In this document: piece after piece, positions 16,641-30,971 of the stretch
Layout: each line of letters opens with the position of its first letter
How positions within the stretch are numbered: position 1 is the stretch's first letter
Assembly (NCBI RefSeq): GCF_029232205.1
Contig: NZ_CP107255.1
Coordinates: forward strand, 60,001 to 92,000
Length of the DNA: 32,000 nucleotides
Direction: 5' to 3'
Source: Candidatus Saccharimonadota bacterium
GTDB lineage: Archaea; Nanohalarchaeota; Nanosalinia; Nanosalinales; Nanosalinaceae
Notes under the pieces: model-generated
The model's input: only the letters and a program-made list of their open reading frames with translations
The model's database searches: none
Told to the model about the DNA's origin: nothing
Program-made: the position numbers and the translations under genes

Positions 16641-17345
16641 ATGATGTTGAAGTTTGAGGATCTGCCAGAAGAGACCAGAGTAAAACTTACGGAGAAAGGC
16701 CGTGAAGATCTCTGGCACAGAGTAGACGAGTTTGGAGGAGTCAAACAGCTGTCAGAGGCCTTCGACTTCTCAAGTTCAAAGATGTACAACTGGAGGTCGA
16801 AAAACTCGTTCATGCCAATCAGCTTTATCAGGCGTTTAATGGGCCAGAACCCTCCAGAGATTGATGCTGTGAAAGGCAAAGGCCGTGGAAAGGCCTGGGG
16901 TATAGATCTTCCTGTAGAGGTAAGTGAAGAACTTTTGACCCGTGTAGAGGCCTCGGTTACAGTTAATCGGAAAGGCACGCCGGTGTATATTACAGATGAG
17001 AAGTCCTTGGCCTCAAGATTCCTGAATTTGCTTGAGGAGATCGGTGTGGATCAGAGCTTCTACAACCGTGAAGGCCGCTACGAGGTAAGATACTCGAAGT
17101 ACGCCCACAATGTTCTATCAGATATTGATTTTTCTGAGAAATTTTCTGCACTGGTTGATGAAGAAGGAGATATCACAGAGGAAAAAGTCAGGGCCTCTGG
17201 TAAAGGAGTTTCTGTTGAAGAATTTGATGCAGAGCTTTATTCCCGTAGTAAAATTTTTGATCTGGCATTGGCCCGTGGAGATAAGGAAAAGATTCAGGCC
17301 TTGATAGCTGAAGAGTCAAGTAGGGTAAGGAATCTGGTAAATTGA
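16641..17345 (+). CDS. hypothetical protein with N-terminal HTH-like segment
   Basis: 234 aa. GGVKQLSEAFDFSSSKMYNWRSKNSFMPISFIRRL resembles an HTH followed by a domain of unknown function. Opposite strand to the ribosomal operon it interrupts. Confidence 0.55.
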   Translation: MMLKFEDLPEETRVKLTEKGREDLWHRVDEFGGVKQLSEAFDFSSSKMYNWRSKNSFMPISFIRRLMGQNPPEIDAVKGKGRGKAWGIDLPVEVSEELLTRVEASVTVNRKGTPVYITDEKSLASRFLNLLEEIGVDQSFYNREGRYEVRYSKYAHNVLSDIDFSEKFSALVDEEGDITEEKVRASGKGVSVEEFDAELYSRSKIFDLALARGDKEKIQALIAEESSRVRNLVN

Positions 17346-18602
17346 TTATCTGAAGGTGCTTAATTTTTTGCAGGCCTTTTCGGTCTTGTCACATGGTTCC
17401 CAGATGTCTTTGCTGTACGGGTCAACTCTGTATCTTCTTGCGGTATCATTGACTATAGTAACGTAGGCAAATTTTTCTATCTGGCCTGTCGCTGGTCTCC
17501 CCGTGTATAAGCTGATTGTTTCGTTGTTTTCGATTCCTTTTCTGCCGTCTCCATCGCTGTCGGTAGAGTCTTTTCTTATTTTGAGAGTGTCGCCTTTGCG
17601 TACAGGGAATTCGGAAATTCCGCTGTGCCCGAAGTTTTTCAGGGCTAACTTCCAGCTTGAGTATCTTATACTTGTTAACGCATCTATGATGCCTGTTCTG
17701 GCCCAGATATTGTTTTCCTCAAATCTTTTTTCCGAGGTATCAATCATGTATCTTGGGTCGTGGCTTTTGTTTCCGATATAGATCCCGCCTGTTTCCGTTA
17801 TCAGAGGATTTCCCGAGTTTGTAATTACTAGCCATTCTTTCTCAGGCCTGTAACTATAATTTAGTCTTGGATAACCCCCTTCAGGGTTGCCAGCAGCTTT
17901 TTTCTCAATATCTGATAGATCACTGAACTCTTTCTGCGTAGTATGGCCTGATATAGAGAACACTCCAATGGCTACAACTACTAGGATGGCTACCGCTAAC
18001 TGTGTTTTGTTTTTACTTAATCCTGTTCTAACCTTTGATTTTGCTTGGGTAATGACTTCGATCTTGGAAAATACGGCCTGTTCCAGTTTTGCCACTAGAA
18101 ATGTCAGAACGAGAGGAGTCATAGGTTTCAGCGCATAGTCTGGCTGTGGAGGCCAGATCCCGTACTGTGGAAGCCCGCCAGATATCTGTTGGAATGTTGC
18201 GAGGCCTATCCCAAGCCATAGGATTATTGCTGTTAGAGGAAGGTATAGATTCTTCTTCAAGGCTAAATATGTTGGAACTGCTGCAACCAGGAAGTTCAGG
18301 ATGAATAGGATGCTGGCGATAATCAACAAAATTATTGCTCCCTTTGAGAAACCGATAAAATCGAGAGGAGAATATTGTGCTCGAGAAAGGAAGAACATTG
18401 AAGATGAAATTAGCGTGTAGACCAGGCCTGCTGCTATAGATTTCCTGGTAGTAGGATCTGATAAACTGATTCTGTCCCTGCCTTTTCTTATCAGCCATTC
18501 AATAGAACCTAGAGATACTGATGCTGCAGCGATAAGAATGAACAGCCAGCCCTCACCACCTAATTTCAATCCTATGGTGGGATAGTAAGTTCTGAAATCC
18601 AT
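17346..18602 (-). CDS. membrane protein with about 6 N-terminal TM helices and a C-terminal extracytoplasmic domain, hypothetical
   Basis: 418 aa. The hydrophobic N-terminal half is followed by a soluble domain of about 200 aa containing DSTDSDGDGRKG. Confidence 0.6.
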   Translation of the reverse strand: MDFRTYYPTIGLKLGGEGWLFILIAAASVSLGSIEWLIRKGRDRISLSDPTTRKSIAAGLVYTLISSSMFFLSRAQYSPLDFIGFSKGAIILLIIASILFILNFLVAAVPTYLALKKNLYLPLTAIILWLGIGLATFQQISGGLPQYGIWPPQPDYALKPMTPLVLTFLVAKLEQAVFSKIEVITQAKSKVRTGLSKNKTQLAVAILVVVAIGVFSISGHTTQKEFSDLSDIEKKAAGNPEGGYPRLNYSYRPEKEWLVITNSGNPLITETGGIYIGNKSHDPRYMIDTSEKRFEENNIWARTGIIDALTSIRYSSWKLALKNFGHSGISEFPVRKGDTLKIRKDSTDSDGDGRKGIENNETISLYTGRPATGQIEKFAYVTIVNDTARRYRVDPYSKDIWEPCDKTEKACKKLSTFR

Positions 18603-20913: not shown

Positions 20914-21348
20914 TTATTGCTGAGCTTTTTTGCGCACCATGTCTGCGTCGACTGTTGTTGGAATCGGTACTGCGGCGTCTAGCAGTTCGATGGTGACTTC
21001 TCTGTTGGTTTCGTCTACTCTGTTGATTTTTGCTTCTTCTCCTTTGAAAGGCCCGCCGATTACTTCTACCTTGTCGCCTACTTCGAGCTTGATGTCTTCC
21101 TGTTCTTCGCTCAGGTATTTTTCTATCTCGTCGACTTCTACTTCTTCATCTATGATGCCGTTGATGTTTCTGGCGTCGTTTGCGACTTTTCTGATGTCTG
21201 CTTCGTTTCCTTCGATGAAGATGTATCCCTGGAGGTCTTCTGGGTGGAAAACCGCTCTTATGTCTACGTCTTTTCCTTTGACTTTGCTTTCAAGTGCGTT
21301 TATTGCGGTCTTCTCGCGTCCTCTTGTTGTTCGTGCGGTAAGTATCAT
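20914..21348 (-). CDS. spt5: transcription elongation factor Spt5 (NusG homologue)
   Basis: 144 aa. NGN domain plus KOW motif (GDKVEVIGGPFKGEEAKI). Confidence 0.92.
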   Translation of the reverse strand: MILTARTTRGREKTAINALESKVKGKDVDIRAVFHPEDLQGYIFIEGNEADIRKVANDARNINGIIDEEVEVDEIEKYLSEEQEDIKLEVGDKVEVIGGPFKGEEAKINRVDETNREVTIELLDAAVPIPTTVDADMVRKKAQQ

Positions 21349-21354
21349 TGTAGT

Positions 21355-21555
21355 TCACAGGTAGTTTGGAATCAGGTTTGAAAGCAGGTAGAAGATAAAT
21401 CCTATCAGTCCGATGATTATCATTCCTGCGCCGGTGACTTTGGCGCTCATCTCGAATTCTTCTCTGTCAGGTTTCTCGGATATTTTGAGCACTCTACGGT
21501 ACTCTCGTAGTTTATCCGTTGCATACTGCTTCCATTTTCCGGGGTTTAGTTCCAT
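21355..21555 (-). CDS. secE: protein translocase subunit SecE (Sec61-gamma)
   Basis: 66 aa. Charged N-terminus, KP..EEF motif and a single C-terminal TM helix. Position immediately upstream of spt5. Confidence 0.85.
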   Translation of the reverse strand: MELNPGKWKQYATDKLREYRRVLKISEKPDREEFEMSAKVTGAGMIIIGLIGFIFYLLSNLIPNYL

Positions 21556-21590
21556 TGGCTGATTACACCTATACCCGTATTTAGAGAGAA

Positions 21591-21675
21591 CTAGTCCATA
21601 AGACTTGGCCTCCCTCCCACCAAAGGTGGTTCCAACGGGCGATACATTAAACTTCTTGAACAGAAATTTTATAAA
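21591..21675 (-). promoter_or_regulatory. secE promoter (TTTATAAA 21668-21675) and about 90-nt leader with leaderless mini-ORF 21591..21647 (MYRPLEPPLVGGRPSLMD)
   Basis: Palindromic TATA about 25 nt before ATG 21647. Leader helices CCACC-TTT-GGTGG and GCCCGT...ACGGGT. AGGTG SD 13 nt before the secE ATG. Confidence 0.35.
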
Positions 21676-21693
21676 TCAGTTTTCTAACTTCAC

Positions 21694-22653
21694 TTACTCT
21701 ATGTATACTATTTTCCAGGTAATTCTGTCATCGCAGTAGTCTGCGCTTTTGTCAGCGTTATTGTACTCGAAACTGACAGAACTAGCTTTAGCATCTTTTA
21801 CCGTGTCAATAAGCTCTGCATTATAGAATGAGGCAGAACCACCATCTGCATAATCTACATCTATGCTGTATGCATTTCCATCATCGGTACAATAGCTAGA
21901 TCCATCTCCTAAGCCATCTACACTTATCTGGGTTTGAAGAATAACTCCATCGAGAGAAATAGTGTCGGCCGTACCGCTGTCTCCTCCTTGAGCTGTTACC
22001 GTGCGTGTTACAGTATTTGGTTGAAGGCCTGAGTTGCTGTCTACGTAGCTTTTTGTAGCGGCATCCTGTGGGTCTGTTGGGCCGTTAACATTCTTGATCT
22101 GGTTGTTGTTCATGTCAACGTTTGACGTTGCGGGGTCATCTGGTAGATATCCGTCGTCTGCGGTGCTGAATCTGTTGTCTACGTAGTTTTTGGTTGCTGC
22201 ATCCTGAGAGTTGCTTGGACTTCCCAGGCCTATGAGCTGGTTATTGTTCATTTCTATGTTTTGATTAGCGGTGCTTCCTTCGTTTAGAACTTCTCCAAGA
22301 GTCTGATTGTCTTCTGCATTGCTGTCTACGTAGTTTTTGGTTGCTGCATCCTGCGGGTTAACCGGAGATTGCACGCTGATTATTCTGTTGGAGCTCATGT
22401 TGACGTTCGATGTTGCTGGGTAATCGGGCAGATATCTCTCGGCGGTAGTGGATGAGTCTACATAGTCCTTTGTGGCGGCGTCGCCAGGGCTATTAGGGGT
22501 TGCTATGTTGGTGATCCTGTTGTTATTCATGTCTAGTTCGCCAAACATGTTGGTGACGTCACGTATATTTACATCTCCTGAAACGCTAGTCCCAAGAAGT
22601 ACTAATATCAGTATGAGAAACTTCGTTTTACCTATTTCTATGTTAATTTCCAT
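21694..22653 (-). CDS. secreted protein with four tail-fibre-like repeats (putative adhesin)
   Basis: 319 aa. Sec-type signal (KFLILILVLLGTSVSG). Four repeats of about 44-49 aa of the form h-D/N-M-N-N-N-R/Q-I-x-N-h-x-x-P-x-x-x-x-DAATK-x-YVD. C-terminal beta-rich domain with 2 Cys. Own TATA (AAATTTATAAAC) about 30 nt upstream. Confidence 0.75.
   Translation of the reverse strand: MEINIEIGKTKFLILILVLLGTSVSGDVNIRDVTNMFGELDMNNNRITNIATPNSPGDAATKDYVDSSTTAERYLPDYPATSNVNMSSNRIISVQSPVNPQDAATKNYVDSNAEDNQTLGEVLNEGSTANQNIEMNNNQLIGLGSPSNSQDAATKNYVDNRFSTADDGYLPDDPATSNVDMNNNQIKNVNGPTDPQDAATKSYVDSNSGLQPNTVTRTVTAQGGDSGTADTISLDGVILQTQISVDGLGDGSSYCTDDGNAYSIDVDYADGGSASFYNAELIDTVKDAKASSVSFEYNNADKSADYCDDRITWKIVYIE
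22036..22542 (-). repeat. intragenic tandem repeat array (4 units) encoding the DAATKxYVD motif
   Basis: DAATK at aa 58, 102, 151 and 197. A 30-nt perfect DNA direct repeat GTCTACGTAGTTTTTGGTTGCTGCATCCTG at 22177-22206 and 22324-22353. Units 2 and 4 also share YLPD(Y/D)PATSNV(N/D)M, indicating a two-unit duplication. Confidence 0.85.
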
Positions 22654-22692
22654 CTAACATCACTTTGTGGTTTCTCTTTGTTTATAAATTTC

Positions 22693-23574
22693 TTAGCAGG
22701 ATCCAATGCAGACATTGTTGGATTTTATCCTGTTTAATTCTAGAGGCCCTCTCATGAATGCAGAGCTATTAGATAGGTGATCTGTGCTTGAAGTTGTTAC
22801 ATTATCGCAGTTTTTACCTATGCATATATCAGAAGCTCCTGATGAATACCTTATTGCTGAAGTTAGAACGCTTCCGTTGATACTGTCGCCGCCGTTATCT
22901 ACTTTGCAGTCTGGGTCTCTATCTGTGCAGGTAGCAGTCTCAGACCCGCAGTTTCCTATACAGATTGTGTTGGATGAGTATGGGAGTATGCTGTTGTTTC
23001 CGGTGGAGGACATGATTATTATTTCCTGTATAGGGCCTCCTTTCTCAGCGAAAGGTGTTCCGGAACCTGGAGTGCCTGGGTTTGTGATTCCTGCGCTGTC
23101 GCCGGATTTTTTCTGGCATATGTAAGTGAGCTGGGTTTCTGGAGTTGCCAGTCTGATGCTTTCTGTTTCTCTCGAAACGTTTTCTGATATATTAATTGTT
23201 GAGGTTTGCTTCGGATTTACGATGTCCTGGCCTGTACTATAACTGGTTTTTTCTCCTTCCACATATACATTCAGTTTCGATAAGTTGACGGCCTCGTCGT
23301 TGTTGTTTCTTAAAGTAAGTACTGTGTTTTCATTATCTTTTGCACAGTTCTCCACGGATAATTGGCCTATTAGTTCTGTGTTCAAATTAGAGTTATCTTC
23401 CTGGGCCTGTATCTGCGAGCTTGCAATGAAATATGCTCCGCCTACAGCGCTTGTTGAGATTGCAATCAGAATTACTGTTGAGACTACGGGAGTAAGGCCT
23501 TTCAGGGTTTTTTCCTGTTTTTCCTGAATCTCCTCAACTTCTTCCTTTTTTCCGTGTTGAGGATTCTGGGCCAT
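22693..23574 (-). CDS. archaeal type IV pilin-like protein (class III signal peptide) with Cys-rich C-terminal CIGxC repeats
   Basis: 293 aa. KG|LTPVVSTVILIAISTSAVGGAYFI matches the prepilin-peptidase site plus hydrophobic helix of DUF1628-type archaeal pilins. The C-terminal 90 aa carry TICIGNCG, DICIGKNCD and NVCIGSC. 10 Cys in total. Confidence 0.7.
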   Translation of the reverse strand: MAQNPQHGKKEEVEEIQEKQEKTLKGLTPVVSTVILIAISTSAVGGAYFIASSQIQAQEDNSNLNTELIGQLSVENCAKDNENTVLTLRNNNDEAVNLSKLNVYVEGEKTSYSTGQDIVNPKQTSTINISENVSRETESIRLATPETQLTYICQKKSGDSAGITNPGTPGSGTPFAEKGGPIQEIIIMSSTGNNSILPYSSNTICIGNCGSETATCTDRDPDCKVDNGGDSINGSVLTSAIRYSSGASDICIGKNCDNVTTSSTDHLSNSSAFMRGPLELNRIKSNNVCIGSC

Positions 23575-23638
23575 ATTTTGATATTAGAAAACTGGAATAA
23601 AAAGAGTGGATAAATGGAAAGTTTGAGGGGCCTTGGCT

Positions 23639-24751
23639 CTAGATGAATTCTACGCCAAGTTCCTGCTCGATTTCTTCTTCGTACTCGTCCTGATGTGTGT
23701 TGTCAGGGCCGTAGATTTGAGGGCTGTCGACTCCTGTGACGATGATCATTGCCTGGAGTGCGTCGCTCATGTCTTCACGCACTTGTGCTCCCCAGATGAT
23801 CTTTGCTGAGTCATCAAGCTTTCCGCTGACAGTATTGACTACTTCTTGGGCCTCGTTGAGGGATAGTGATGATCCTCCTGTTACGTTTACGAGTGCTCCT
23901 TCTCCGCCTGCGATGTCTACGTCGAGCAGTGGGTTGCTTAGTGCTTTCTGCACTGCTTCGTTGGCTCTGGAGTCTGTGTCGGACTGGCCCATTCCGATCA
24001 TGGCGATTCCTCCTTCTCCCATGACTGCGCGGATGTCTGCGAAGTCTAGGTTGACGAGGCCTGGTTTTGTAACCAGTTCTGTGACTCCTTTGACTGCGTT
24101 TACGAGGATTTCGTCTGCGATCTTGAATGCTGTGTTCAGTGATACGTCTGGGACGATTTCGAGCAGTTTGTCGTTTGGTATTACGATTAGTGTGTCTACG
24201 ACTTCTTCTAGTCTTTCGAGGCCGTATTCTGCGTTTTCCTGTCGGCTGGTTCCTTCCATTTCGAATGGTAGTGTGACGATTCCTACGGTCAGTGCGCCTT
24301 CTTTTTTGGCCTGTTCTGCGATCACGTGTGCGGATCCGGTTCCTGTTCCTCCTCCGAGGCCGCAAGTGATGAATACCATGTCGCTTCCGCTGACCTGTTC
24401 CTTAATTTTTTGCTGTGACTCTTTTGCGGATTCTTCTCCGACTTTTGGGTCGGCTCCTGCTCCGAGGCCCTGTGTTAGTTCTTTTCCGATTAGTACTTTC
24501 TGGTCGGCGTTTGCGTATAGAAGATCCTGTGCGTCGGTGTTCATTGCGATTGTATCGCATCCTTCTATTCCGACGTCAACTAGGCGAGAAATTGTGTTGT
24601 TTCCGGCTCCTCCGGTACCGATGACTTTGATATCGGCTTTTCTCTGTTCTATTAGATTCTCGAGTTCTTCGTCGATATCGTGGCTTTTCTGACTTGATTG
24701 AGGTACTCCGCCTGCATCGTTTCTCTTTGCCTGTTCGATCTGATCTTCCAT
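23639..24751 (-). CDS. ftsZ: cell division protein FtsZ
   Basis: 370 aa. GTGGAGNN and the tubulin signature GLGGGTGTGS. Confidence 0.97.
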   Translation of the reverse strand: MEDQIEQAKRNDAGGVPQSSQKSHDIDEELENLIEQRKADIKVIGTGGAGNNTISRLVDVGIEGCDTIAMNTDAQDLLYANADQKVLIGKELTQGLGAGADPKVGEESAKESQQKIKEQVSGSDMVFITCGLGGGTGTGSAHVIAEQAKKEGALTVGIVTLPFEMEGTSRQENAEYGLERLEEVVDTLIVIPNDKLLEIVPDVSLNTAFKIADEILVNAVKGVTELVTKPGLVNLDFADIRAVMGEGGIAMIGMGQSDTDSRANEAVQKALSNPLLDVDIAGGEGALVNVTGGSSLSLNEAQEVVNTVSGKLDDSAKIIWGAQVREDMSDALQAMIIVTGVDSPQIYGPDNTHQDEYEEEIEQELGVEFI

Positions 24752-29403: not shown

Positions 29404-30171
29404 ATGACCCGATTGATCTGTGTGACTAGTGGAAAGGGAGGGGTCGGAAAGACCACGGTAACTTCAAATCTTGGAGCAGCGCTCACCAATTTTGGTGCAG
29501 ATACGGTGGTTCTGGATGCAAATCTTACTAACCCAAACCTTGGATTCCACATTGGAATTCCGCTATACCCAAAGACTCTTCACGATGTCTTGAAGGGTGA
29601 TGCACACATCACAGAGGCCATGTATATTCATGATTCAGGCCTTCGTGTTGTTCCAGCAGGTCTATCGGTAGAGGATCTTGAGGATACAGATCCTGCAAAT
29701 CTTTCTGATGTCTTGCTTGACGCAGTTGGAGAACCTGACTTTGTACTGGTTGACTCTGCGGCAGGACTTGGAAATGAATCTATTAATGCTATTGAGGCCT
29801 CGGATGAGGTACTCGTTGTAACTAATCCAAATCTTCCGGCTGTTACTGACGCGCTGAAGACTGTGAATATTGCTGAGGAAGCTGGTACGGAGATCAGAGG
29901 AGTTGTTCTTAACATGGTTAAGGGCCATGATTCCGAGCTTGATACTGAGGAAGTTGAGTCGATGATCGGCCACCCGGTTATGATGGAGATTCCTCACCAT
30001 GAGAAGGTTGAGGAAGCTCTTTCATTGAAGAAGCCGGTTGTACATCACGAACCTGATCACCATGTTTCCGAACGGTTTAAGGCCGTTGCAGGAGATCTTG
30101 CGGGTGTTGATTATGAGCCTAACCTTGCGGAGCCAGGGCTTTTCACTCGTTTGATGGGACGGTTCAGATAA
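29404..30171 (+). CDS. minD: MinD/ParA-family P-loop ATPase (archaeal MinD-like), copy 1
   Basis: 255 aa. Deviant Walker A SGKGGVGKTT. Switch regions. C-terminal amphipathic GLFTRLMGRFR. TATA (ATAATTTAAAT) 25 nt upstream. Confidence 0.88.
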   Translation: MTRLICVTSGKGGVGKTTVTSNLGAALTNFGADTVVLDANLTNPNLGFHIGIPLYPKTLHDVLKGDAHITEAMYIHDSGLRVVPAGLSVEDLEDTDPANLSDVLLDAVGEPDFVLVDSAAGLGNESINAIEASDEVLVVTNPNLPAVTDALKTVNIAEEAGTEIRGVVLNMVKGHDSELDTEEVESMIGHPVMMEIPHHEKVEEALSLKKPVVHHEPDHHVSERFKAVAGDLAGVDYEPNLAEPGLFTRLMGRFR

Positions 30172-30209
30172 GGGCACCTTTTTAACCCGCTGAATATAAT
30201 TTTACTTTA

Positions 30210-30971
30210 ATGACCAGGGTTATCTCTGTCGTATCTGGCAAAGGTGGTGTAGGAAAAACCACTGTAACATCTAATCTTGGCACAGCGCTCTCTAGACAGG
30301 GCCACGACGTGCTTATAATCGATGGTAACTTCTCGGGTGCGAATCTAGCCCAGCATTTTGGCCTAGGTTTTTCAGACGTAACTTTCAACGATGTTCTCAG
30401 AGGAGACGCATATATTACACAGGCTGTTTCCAAACATCCTGAAGGAGTTTCGATTGTTCCCGCCTCAGTACTGGAGTTCAGTACGAACGCAGATCAGCTC
30501 AAACACTCTCTAGTAGAGTTTCTGGGCGACAAGGATTTCGTGTTTATTGATGCTGCCGCAGGGATCGGAGATGAAGTAGAGGCAGCTATTGAGGCCTCGG
30601 ATGAGGTACTGCTTGTTTCAGAGCCAGAGCTTCCGGCATTGACTAACTGTCTTGGAGCAAAGAAGATGGCAGAGCAGCTTAACAGAGATGTTTTAGGCCT
30701 AGTTGTTAACGGCGTTAAGAATGAGAAATCAGAGGTCAGCCTTGAAGATGCACAGGATTTGATGGAAACAAATATTATCGGAAAAGTTCCTGATCACAAG
30801 CATGTTAGAGAGGCGATTGCCCTCAGAAAGCCGGTTGTATCTCATAAACCTCAGTCAAAGGCCTCTCTTGCTATAAGAGATGTTGCTCACAGAGTTAAGG
30901 GGAATGAGCCGCCTGAAAGAGGTTTGACGGTGAGGATTAAGTCAAGTATTCACGATATTGCTCCTTTCTAG
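30210..30971 (+). CDS. minD: MinD/ParA-family P-loop ATPase, copy 2 (tandem paralogue)
   Basis: 253 aa. Same SGKGGVGKTTVTSNLG start and shared IEASDEVL block with copy 1. Different C-terminus. Confidence 0.88.
   Translation: MTRVISVVSGKGGVGKTTVTSNLGTALSRQGHDVLIIDGNFSGANLAQHFGLGFSDVTFNDVLRGDAYITQAVSKHPEGVSIVPASVLEFSTNADQLKHSLVEFLGDKDFVFIDAAAGIGDEVEAAIEASDEVLLVSEPELPALTNCLGAKKMAEQLNRDVLGLVVNGVKNEKSEVSLEDAQDLMETNIIGKVPDHKHVREAIALRKPVVSHKPQSKASLAIRDVAHRVKGNEPPERGLTVRIKSSIHDIAPF

Follow-up and report, generated by a model that had tools for sequence, protein, structure and literature searches.

A conserved gene pair of nanohaloarchaea, predicted to encode a pilin-like protein and an exported protein with phage-fibre units, as a candidate host-attachment fibre

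Host recognition by DPANN ectosymbionts is largely unknown, and the current candidates are giant or lectin-domain proteins. Cell-encoded surface proteins that resemble phage fibres are already known from another domain of life: the MAT fibres of Bdellovibrio bacteriovorus are phage-fibre-like, have a signal peptide and an invariant proximal part, and carry swappable C-terminal tips. Bdellovibrio attacks other prokaryotes, and one MAT fibre was shown to bind prey glycans (PMC10769870). Here we describe a gene for an exported protein with fibre-like repeats (21694-22653, minus strand) and its upstream neighbor, which encodes a pilin-like protein. Both lie within a 32-kb stretch of a nanohaloarchaeal genome (contig NZ_CP107255.1, positions 60,001 to 92,000), which we will refer to as the window. 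What is new here is that the two genes form a conserved nanohaloarchaeal module. We tentatively favor the reading that the fibre-repeat protein is exported by Sec to the surface of an ectosymbiotic nanohaloarchaeon, where its most likely role, together with its partner, would be attachment to the host.

The 319-aa product is 100% identical (protein search) to a "hypothetical protein" in NCBI from Candidatus Nanohalovita haloferacivicina. This is a cultured nanohaloarchaeon that is attached to Haloferax lucentense (PMC10266531). The first-pass annotation of this DNA, which was made from the letters alone, had guessed at an ectosymbiotic nanohaloarchaeon, and the guess was correct; the open reading frame (ORF) that it reported, with a Sec-type signal, also holds up, with exact coordinates. 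Besides the ORF itself, the gene is supported by the NCBI identity and by matches to PHROG profiles. From its N-terminus, the protein consists of a segment that resembles a signal peptide (aa 1-26), then the four units, and finally a C-terminal domain of 114 aa. The Sec-type signal peptide (22576-22653, minus strand) has n, h, and c regions of MEINIEIGKTK, FLILILVLLGTSV, and SG↓D, and this predicted cleavage site falls in the same alignment columns as the AXA-type sites of the homologues (VSA↓D, VGA↓D, and AAA↓D). We called the signal peptide from the sequence and from the homologue alignment, without a dedicated predictor, and these suggest that it is cleaved.

The motif DAATKxYVD occurs four times in the protein (at aa 58, 102, 151, and 197), as had been noticed in the first pass, and nowhere else among the six-frame ORFs of the window. 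Unit 1 (aa 27-66; 22456-22575, minus strand, as for the other units) starts with the mature N-terminus, DVNIRD..., followed by LDMNNNRITNIATPNSPGDAATKDYVD; alignments to phage fibres from PDB cover aa 29-73. Unit 2 (aa 74-110; 22324-22434) and unit 4 (aa 169-205; 22039-22149) are of the YLPD type and end in DAATKNYVD and DAATKSYVD, respectively. These two units have YLPD(Y/D)PATSNV(N/D)M in common (at aa 74 and aa 169), which is the shared segment that the first reading had pointed out. Unit 3 (aa 116-159; 22177-22308) is of the QTLGEVLNEGSTANQ type and ends in DAATKNYVD. The limits of units 2 to 4 come from the motif and from comparing the units to each other, and for unit 3 from the homologue alignment as well.

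The first-pass annotation had linked this motif to viral tail fibres, and several kinds of searches agree. In a profile search, 13 PHROG families matched at E = 6.6e-29 to 1e-9, each in four separate stretches; 10 of these families are annotated as tail, tail-fibre, or head-decoration proteins and the other 3 are of unknown function. The matching tail-fibre and tailspike families include PHROGs 1640, 2710, 26630, 11393, and 6518. Each stretch spans only ~30-45 positions of profiles that are 336-1084 positions long. In Pfam, PF03906 (Phage T7 tail fibre N-terminal domain) reached 22.1 bits (E = 1.3e-4), which is below its gathering threshold of 25.2 bits, and the match covers positions 120-150 of a profile of 157. 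The window protein does not match the whole domain, as positions 1-119 are absent; what it has, four times over, is the terminal motif of the family (hxMxxNxIxNLxxPxxxxDAxxKxYVD), which aligns in PDB with residues 103-153 of phage fibres. Homologues of the Nanohalobium type (P0016, P0043, P0006, and a protein from L169) match PF03906 above the threshold, with a best E value of 5.4e-12. A sequence search of PDB found the motif once per chain, at residues ~103-176, in podophage tail fibres and tailspikes: PhiM1 gp47 (8vbx, which is described as a trimeric fibre), gp9 (23sh), Gp44 (8es4), and the depolymerases 9m4c and 9m4d. Finally, when the AlphaFold2 (AF2) model was compared to BFVD with Foldseek, there were 15 viral matches at E ≤ 1e-3, among phage fibres as well as proteins of iridoviruses, asfa-like viruses, and algal viruses. 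The template modelling (TM) scores of these matches were low, which is expected because the models are extended monomers. At the level of sequence, these matches show that the archaeal units are homologous to the units of phage tail fibres.

In T7-like podophage fibres (the T7 gp17 family, PF03906; WH11-B XYR95436.1; PhiM1 gp47, 8vbx), the same unit takes the form (YLxxxGxxMxGxLx)MxxNxIxNLxxPxxxxDAATKxYVD, and the best tblastn identity of the archaeal units to phage is 38-42%. For example, the 689-aa fibre of Synechococcus phage WH11-B contains a gp17-like N-domain, three tandem units (YLxxxGxxMxGxLxMxxNKIxxLxxPxxxxDAATKNYVD), and a receptor-binding domain. The modular order, with a shaft and then a variable tip, is alike in T7-like fibres and in the archaeal protein. 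Because the units of the WH11-B fibre lie between its N-domain and its receptor-binding domain, the archaeal protein is, by alignment, a "shaft plus tip" with a signal peptide in place of the virion-binding domain. We did not find a gp17-like virion-attachment domain in the window protein, whose N-terminus is the signal peptide. Thus, unlike the T7-like fibres, the archaeal protein has a Sec signal, no virion domain, and a tip that is unrelated to known receptor-binding domains, and it is encoded by a cellular gene with a pilin-like partner.

The best non-archaeal relatives (33-36% identity) have 4-8 tandem units and are encoded in polinton-like elements, beside genes for the double-jelly-roll (DJR) capsid, A32 ATPase, pPolB, and integrase. 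The tandem-unit proteins of polinton-like and large eukaryotic DNA viruses differ from the archaeal protein in their viral context, in having no signal peptide, and in their unrelated C-terminal domains. The two strongest of these relatives (P0020 and P0005) are in polinton-like elements within very large contigs (L088 and L089, 1.38 Mb and 0.79 Mb in ENA), where the neighbors include an rve integrase. The matches also include a protein from the coral Porites evermanni. There is no haloarchaeal virus among the matches from the phage database, which leaves acquisition from a Haloferax virus without support. Scans of JGI metagenomes for close relatives and of IMG/VR with the archaeal alignment gave repeat-level matches only.

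The Bdellovibrio MAT family is, by its published description, the closest functional analogue. MATs differ in that they are much larger, with an N-domain of 130 aa that is conserved and with shafts that are beta-helices or beta-prisms; they often carry an S74 chaperone, belong to another domain of life, and have no pilin-like partner gene. The proposed host-interaction factors of nanohaloarchaea, which are LamG/PKD proteins, C-type-lectin proteins diversified by a diversity-generating retroelement (DGR), and SPEARE-type giants (PMC10266531, PMC7443923), occur in the same organisms, and the role presumed for them is the same. Unlike these factors, the window protein has just 319 aa, and its tip is an orphan. 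There is a precedent for phage-like parts in another cultured nanohaloarchaeon, whose SVXNc_0798 protein has an R-type pyocin knob domain (PMC10266531). Neither PMC10266531 nor PMC7443923 mentions the window protein, tail-fibre units, or the two-gene module.

In eight of the nine nanohaloarchaeal loci examined, a pilin-like gene is followed by a fibre-repeat gene with a Sec signal, and the two are separated by at most 39 nt or overlap (by 4 nt). The eight are the window, L004, L001, L006, L166, L169 (Ca. Nanohalobium constans), L172, and L173; the exception is L170, with a pilin-like gene and no fibre-repeat partner. The window protein shares these features of the family: a Sec signal, a small-residue cleavage site, a D-h-x-h-R mature N-terminus, and at least one fibre unit. 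The gene is also arranged as in the rest of the family, on the same strand as, and directly downstream of, a gene for a protein with a probable class III signal and three CxGxxC motifs. Furthermore, most of the fibre-repeat partners end in ...NITxxxxxC(I/L)GxxC, which is the same unit as at the C-terminus of the pilin-like protein. As judged from gene order and sequence, this shows that the pair is a conserved module across the Nanohaloarchaeota and that the neighbor is the partner of the fibre-repeat protein. The first-pass annotation had described two surface-protein genes between ftsZ and secE; both genes are there, but it missed that the neighbor is a conserved, pilin-like partner with CxGxxC motifs.

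The pilin-like gene of L170 (13362-14429; Ca. Nanohalobium constans, CP040089) encodes P0134, a paralogue of the pilin-like proteins with the cysteine module, and it accompanies a LamG cluster. On the same strand, ~5.5 kb downstream of it, is a gene of the FtsZ family; this echoes the proximity to ftsZ in the window and may be a coincidence. Beyond the pair, the Nanohalobium-type clusters (L001 1152-8697, L006 3837-4436, L169 8650-10287, L173 6428-7626, and L172 7000-8588) encode proteins with a Tat signal (RRxFxK), some of which have one fibre unit (in L006, DINTNSIKNLSDPNNNQDAATKNYVD), as well as three LamG_3 proteins and three NosD-like beta-helix proteins. In L172, a 201-aa protein has a sub-threshold match to Phage Tail Collar (22.1 bits versus 24), and in L173, TatC is encoded directly upstream of the pair.

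The partner gene (22693-23574, minus strand) encodes a 293-aa pilin-like protein, and the ATG of the fibre gene is 39 nt downstream of it on the same strand. A probable class III (prepilin-type) signal, KG↓LTPVVSTVILIAISTSAVGG (23431-23502, minus strand), is recognizable from its motif, KG↓LTPVVSTVILIAI, and from weak profile matches; the relatives carry KGQSAIEYLTTYGW. The C-terminal module (22696-22992, minus strand) has three CxGxxC motifs (C205/C210, C251/C256, and C289/C293) within fibre-like units. The cysteines and the glycine of these motifs are invariant in 23 members of the partner family, and the module is similar to the L006 protein (BLASTP, E = 3e-6). A single-sequence search with the partner found just itself and the sister-strain copy, while a profile search recovered a family whose named members are all from Nanohaloarchaea, including two paralogues in Ca. 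Nanohalobium constans. By hhalign, the cysteine module modestly resembles the fibre units (E = 7.7e-4, probability 25%; for example, YVNRSGDxMxGTL versus YLxRNGDSIDGNL).

The pilin-type N-module of the partner (KGQSAIEYLTTYGW...) and the beta-sandwich are common to the LamG and FGE/CLec proteins of Ca. Nanohalobium. Because the N-module is shared by ~150-aa pilin-like proteins, LamG proteins, and the DGR-diversified lectin proteins of Nanohalobium (with PMC7443923), it looks like a general display scaffold. In P0166, P0171, P0191, and P0219, which are from Ca. Nanohalobium and relatives, an N-terminal module, KGQSAIEYLTTYGWMLLVVAIVGG, is joined to a beta-sandwich of ~110 aa. This module makes up whole proteins of ~150 aa, and it is also found joined to LamG, to the CxGxxC module, or, in the DGR variable proteins, to their FGE/C-type-lectin fold, which suggests a modular, pilin-based display system in the Nanohaloarchaeota.

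The C-terminal 114 aa of the fibre-repeat protein (21697-22038, minus strand) are an orphan domain and our candidate for the distal tip. When we compared aa 205-319 to 1.84 billion representatives with phmmer, we found only two true relatives: the protein's own cluster, and P0121 (214 aa), which combines this domain with a signal peptide and just one unit. Two cysteines, DYADG, and TW..YIE are conserved. The shorter or compositional matches to P0122 and P0123 were not accepted as homologues. The domain has no match in Pfam, in PHROG, or in a profile search of PDB, and in these databases we found no relation to known receptor-binding or depolymerase domains. In the AF2 monomer model, the units are predicted with a predicted local distance difference test (pLDDT) of 77-85, with a short helix at each TKxYVD and no fixed mutual arrangement, and the tip is predicted to be beta-rich. 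Foldseek against PDB gave nothing at E < 0.01; the only hits were generic beta-sandwiches for the low-confidence tip, and no fold was assigned.

We also compared the locus to that of a sister strain, L004, which is represented by Logan contigs from two runs. It has the same pair, and both proteins are 85% identical at the amino acid level. The flanking genes barely differ: nusG (20914-21348) has 94-100% DNA identity, a rate of synonymous substitution (dS) of 0.11, and a ratio of nonsynonymous to synonymous rates (dN/dS) of 0, and secE (21355-21555, minus strand; Pfam SecE) with its upstream spacer has 94-100% DNA identity, a dS of 0.21, and a dN/dS of 0. Neither has any amino acid changes, so that secE is 100% identical to its L004 counterpart as a protein. 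Divergence is higher in the gene for the pilin-like partner (DNA identity 81-93%, dS 0.41, dN/dS 0.16) and higher still in the fibre gene as a whole (dS 1.16, dN/dS 0.07). Within the fibre gene, DNA identity falls to 64-78% in unit 4 and the tip, dS is saturated in the tip, and the tip is the most divergent part of the protein. The boundary of the divergent region is sharp: in a sliding window, DNA identity to the sister strain climbs from ~70-80% at the 3' end of the gene to 100% upstream of secE between positions 21650 and 21693. This comparison shows hyperdivergence at the strain level under purifying selection. Such a pattern is the signature of an old, recombining, and selected surface allele, whatever the target of that selection.

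The reading that we favor, of a host-attachment fibre, fits with the conservation of the pair, with the fast-diverging island, with phage fibres of the same pattern and units homologous to theirs, with the locally confident structure of these units, with the orphan tip, with an N-module in the partner that also displays LamG and lectin domains, and with the attachment of the organism to Haloferax lucentense. In the proposed mechanism, the signal peptide would be cleaved, leaving a mature protein that begins with a short, conserved N-terminus. The four tail-fibre shaft units that follow, each with a short helix at TKxYVD, would form an extended and probably trimeric stalk, by analogy with the trimeric fibres of phages. 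The stalk would present the lineage-specific, beta-rich C-terminal domain as its distal binding tip. The partner, with its probable prepilin-type N-terminal helix, its beta-sandwich, and its three cysteine-bearing fibre-like units, would most likely be the membrane or pilus anchor on which the fibre docks. The pair would then most likely adhere to the surface of the Haloferax host, with specificity set by the tip. Of these steps, we infer the formation of a trimer from the phage fibres, and docking on the partner and binding to the host are likewise our inferences from the anatomy of the two proteins.

Several observations weigh against this reading. The ...NITxxxxxC(I/L)GxxC end of most fibre-repeat partners is absent from the window protein and from P0121; the window protein ends instead in the 114-aa domain (...CDDRITWKIVYIE) and keeps only a weak echo, VDGLGDGSSYC. 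(The 413-aa partner from L172 has a different end as well.) The similarity of the cysteine module to the fibre units is modest, at the 25% probability given above and at 5% for the window protein itself, and the profiles for pilin signals are below their thresholds or weak (15 bits for TIGR02537 versus a cut-off of 20, and E = 0.008 for UpsA). The AF2 models are of little help: the full-length fibre model is poor overall (mean pLDDT 59.9), its tip has a pLDDT of ~45, and the model of the partner, from a 23-sequence alignment, has a pLDDT of 41, with confidence in the beta-sandwich only and with the cysteine module unpredicted. The only transcriptome in PMC10266531 is from a strain other than BNXNv. 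The closest genomes in the clade lack the pair at the ftsZ-secE site, and because of this, the pair does not seem to be essential to the lifestyle. Finally, hyperdivergence between strains would be equally expected if viruses exerted pressure on a surface protein.

We also consider a more specific proposal, which we think is doubtful: a two-component attachment fibre of a previously undescribed kind, in which a pilin-type anchor, a viral-type stalk, and interchangeable, strain-specific tips would together set the haloarchaeal host. Recombination at hot spots, of which the ftsZ-secE spacer would be one, would swap the tips. Such a fibre would be an archaeal counterpart of the receptor-binding proteins of phages and of the MAT fibres of Bdellovibrio. 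If the protein is an attachment fibre, it would mean that a shaft unit found in tailed phages, polinton-like viruses, and large DNA viruses also serves the cells of a third domain in making contact with other cells, and the locus would give a handle on host specificity. If not, the protein would be an ordinary, lineage-specific surface protein. Either way, this is a small and tractable candidate in the cultured Ca. Nanohalovita/Haloferax lucentense system, and there is a homologous pair in the cultured Ca. Nanohalobium constans.

The same anatomy would also suit a surface fibre or pilus accessory that does not recognize the host, and that instead tethers the S-layer or envelope, aggregates the symbionts, or binds polysaccharides (particles of xylan or chitin). 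Ca. Nanohalobium has filaments of unknown role (PMC7443923), and the related gene clusters encode LamG and NosD-like beta-helix domains, which are of the carbohydrate type. However, if the role were purely structural, one would not predict a tip that is specific to the strain and saturated in synonymous divergence, beside housekeeping genes that are nearly identical, and we consider this explanation unlikely.

It is less probable that the protein is released from the cell as a free lectin, an effector, or a toxin-like factor. The Sec signal does look cleavable, and the protein has no C-terminal anchor, transmembrane segment, or PGF-CTERM. But scans with Pfam, PHROG, and further profiles did not detect an enzymatic or toxin domain, and the gene is linked, tightly and in a conserved way (from a 4-nt overlap to 39 nt), to that of a pilin-like, membrane-anchored partner with which the protein has fibre-like units in common, which points to assembly on the cell.

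The genomic setting bears on two viral explanations. The window contains housekeeping genes, including those for aminoacyl-tRNA synthetases, ribosomal proteins L11, L1, L10, and L12, nusG, secE, ftsZ, and MinD-like ATPases. As noticed in the first pass, the linkage between ftsZ (23639-24751, minus strand; Pfam Tubulin and FtsZ_C), upstream of the pair, and secE, downstream of it, is interrupted: the stop of ftsZ is 2083 nt from the start of secE in the window, as compared to a median of 74 nt across 50 DPANN loci, 41 of which have at most 500 nt. The spacer is empty (186-470 nt) in five close relatives (L009, L010, L011, L069, and L013), and in L007, L008, and L012 it carries cargo that is unrelated to the window genes. 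Because close relatives have an empty spacer or unrelated cargo, the ftsZ-secE spacer (21556-23638) is, on this comparison, a variable insertion site in this clade. The cargo consists of 184-aa and 128-aa ORFs in L007, two bPH-like membrane proteins and small ORFs in L008, and a 245-aa hydrolase-like protein and a 158-aa ORF in L012. None of these genes is detectably homologous to the window's partner gene. L007 and L008 encode small, membrane-anchored proteins directly before secE, and these are homologous between the two loci (E = 1e-5) and not to the window genes.

We think it improbable that viruses, rather than the choice of host, shaped the locus, with the fibre serving as the receptor for a nanohaloarchaeal virus or as a decoy for viral fibres and with its variability due to arms races. 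A hypervariable island between close strains would fit with this, as would units that are common to the viral fibres of many lineages, but neither member of the pair was found on the viral contigs of IMG/VR, the phage matches include no haloarchaeal virus, and there is no context of defence genes in the window. Lastly, the viral-type units and the variable insertion site might mark the remnant of an integrated virus, with a leftover tail-fibre gene that has no current function in the cell; this is very improbable given that the 32 kb hold no capsid, terminase, integrase, or other viral genes, that a signal peptide replaces the virion-binding domain, that a dN/dS of 0.07 indicates selection, and that the pair is conserved at different genomic sites in distinct nanohaloarchaeal genera. 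With no viral genes in the window and neither pair member found on IMG/VR, the gene is not in a provirus, which the first-pass annotation had named as a condition that would refute its reading, and the remnant explanation is largely refuted.

The four units of the fibre gene are the product of an old duplication and not of a recent one, because they are just 57-69% identical in DNA (pairwise) and because, of the 25 residues at which units 2 and 4 are identical, only 12 have the same codon. The order of the units (N-terminal, YL-type, QTL-type, YL-type) is shared with homologues from the Nanohalobium lineage. The first-pass annotation had proposed a recent intragenic duplication, which we reject on account of the low DNA identity between units and of the shared unit order. 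It had based this in part on a perfect DNA repeat, which does exist but measures 31 nt and not 30 nt. One copy (22176-22206) is in unit 3 and encodes QDAATKNYVD, and the other (22323-22353) is in unit 2; the repeat is nearly conserved in the sister strain as well. Given the identical peptides and the codon usage of the window, the probability of identical coding by chance is ~1e-3. Tandem Repeats Finder detected no repeats in the DNA; they can be seen only in the protein sequence and in one 45-nt family. The number of units does vary among relatives, as the first reading had anticipated, from 1 (P0121) to 4 (the window protein) to ~7 (P0006). Unit 4 (22039-22149) is the least conserved unit between the window strain and L004 (72% amino acid and 77% nucleotide identity). 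In L004, the loop of unit 4, QITSLGNPSNAQ, resembles the loop of unit 3, KIVGLGSPSNSQ, which suggests gene conversion between units in the lineage of the sister strain.

Upstream of the fibre gene, a TATA-like element, TTTATAAA (22681-22688, minus strand), lies 28-35 nt before the ATG and is possibly the gene's own promoter, which would give a near-leaderless mRNA. The ATG of the partner gene is preceded, at 22-41 nt, by AT-rich, TATA-like elements. The claim in the first-pass annotation that each gene has its own TATA box thus stands as far as the elements go, and their role as promoters is putative. On the other side of the fibre gene, the 138-nt spacer before secE (21556-21693) is 100% identical to the sister strain from 21559 to 21650, which is above the identity of the flanking coding DNA. 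Within this spacer are a CCACC-TTT-GGTGG hairpin and, ~115 nt before the ATG of secE, a TATA-like GATTTATAAAA. When the window was scanned for Rfam families and tRNAs, there was no match in the region upstream of secE, and the z-score for folding (-1.3) is not significant.

Two other features of the window lie away from the pair. The adjacency of the genes for L10 (18736-19734) and L12 (16262-16570) is also broken, by two genes without Pfam matches: a 234-aa ORF (16641-17345, plus strand) and a gene for a 418-aa multi-pass membrane protein (17346-18602, minus strand). At 29404-30971, there are two tandem paralogues of MinD/ParA-type P-loop ATPases (255 and 253 aa), whose similar N-termini read MTR(L/V)I(C/S)V(T/V)SGKGGVGKTTVTSNLG.

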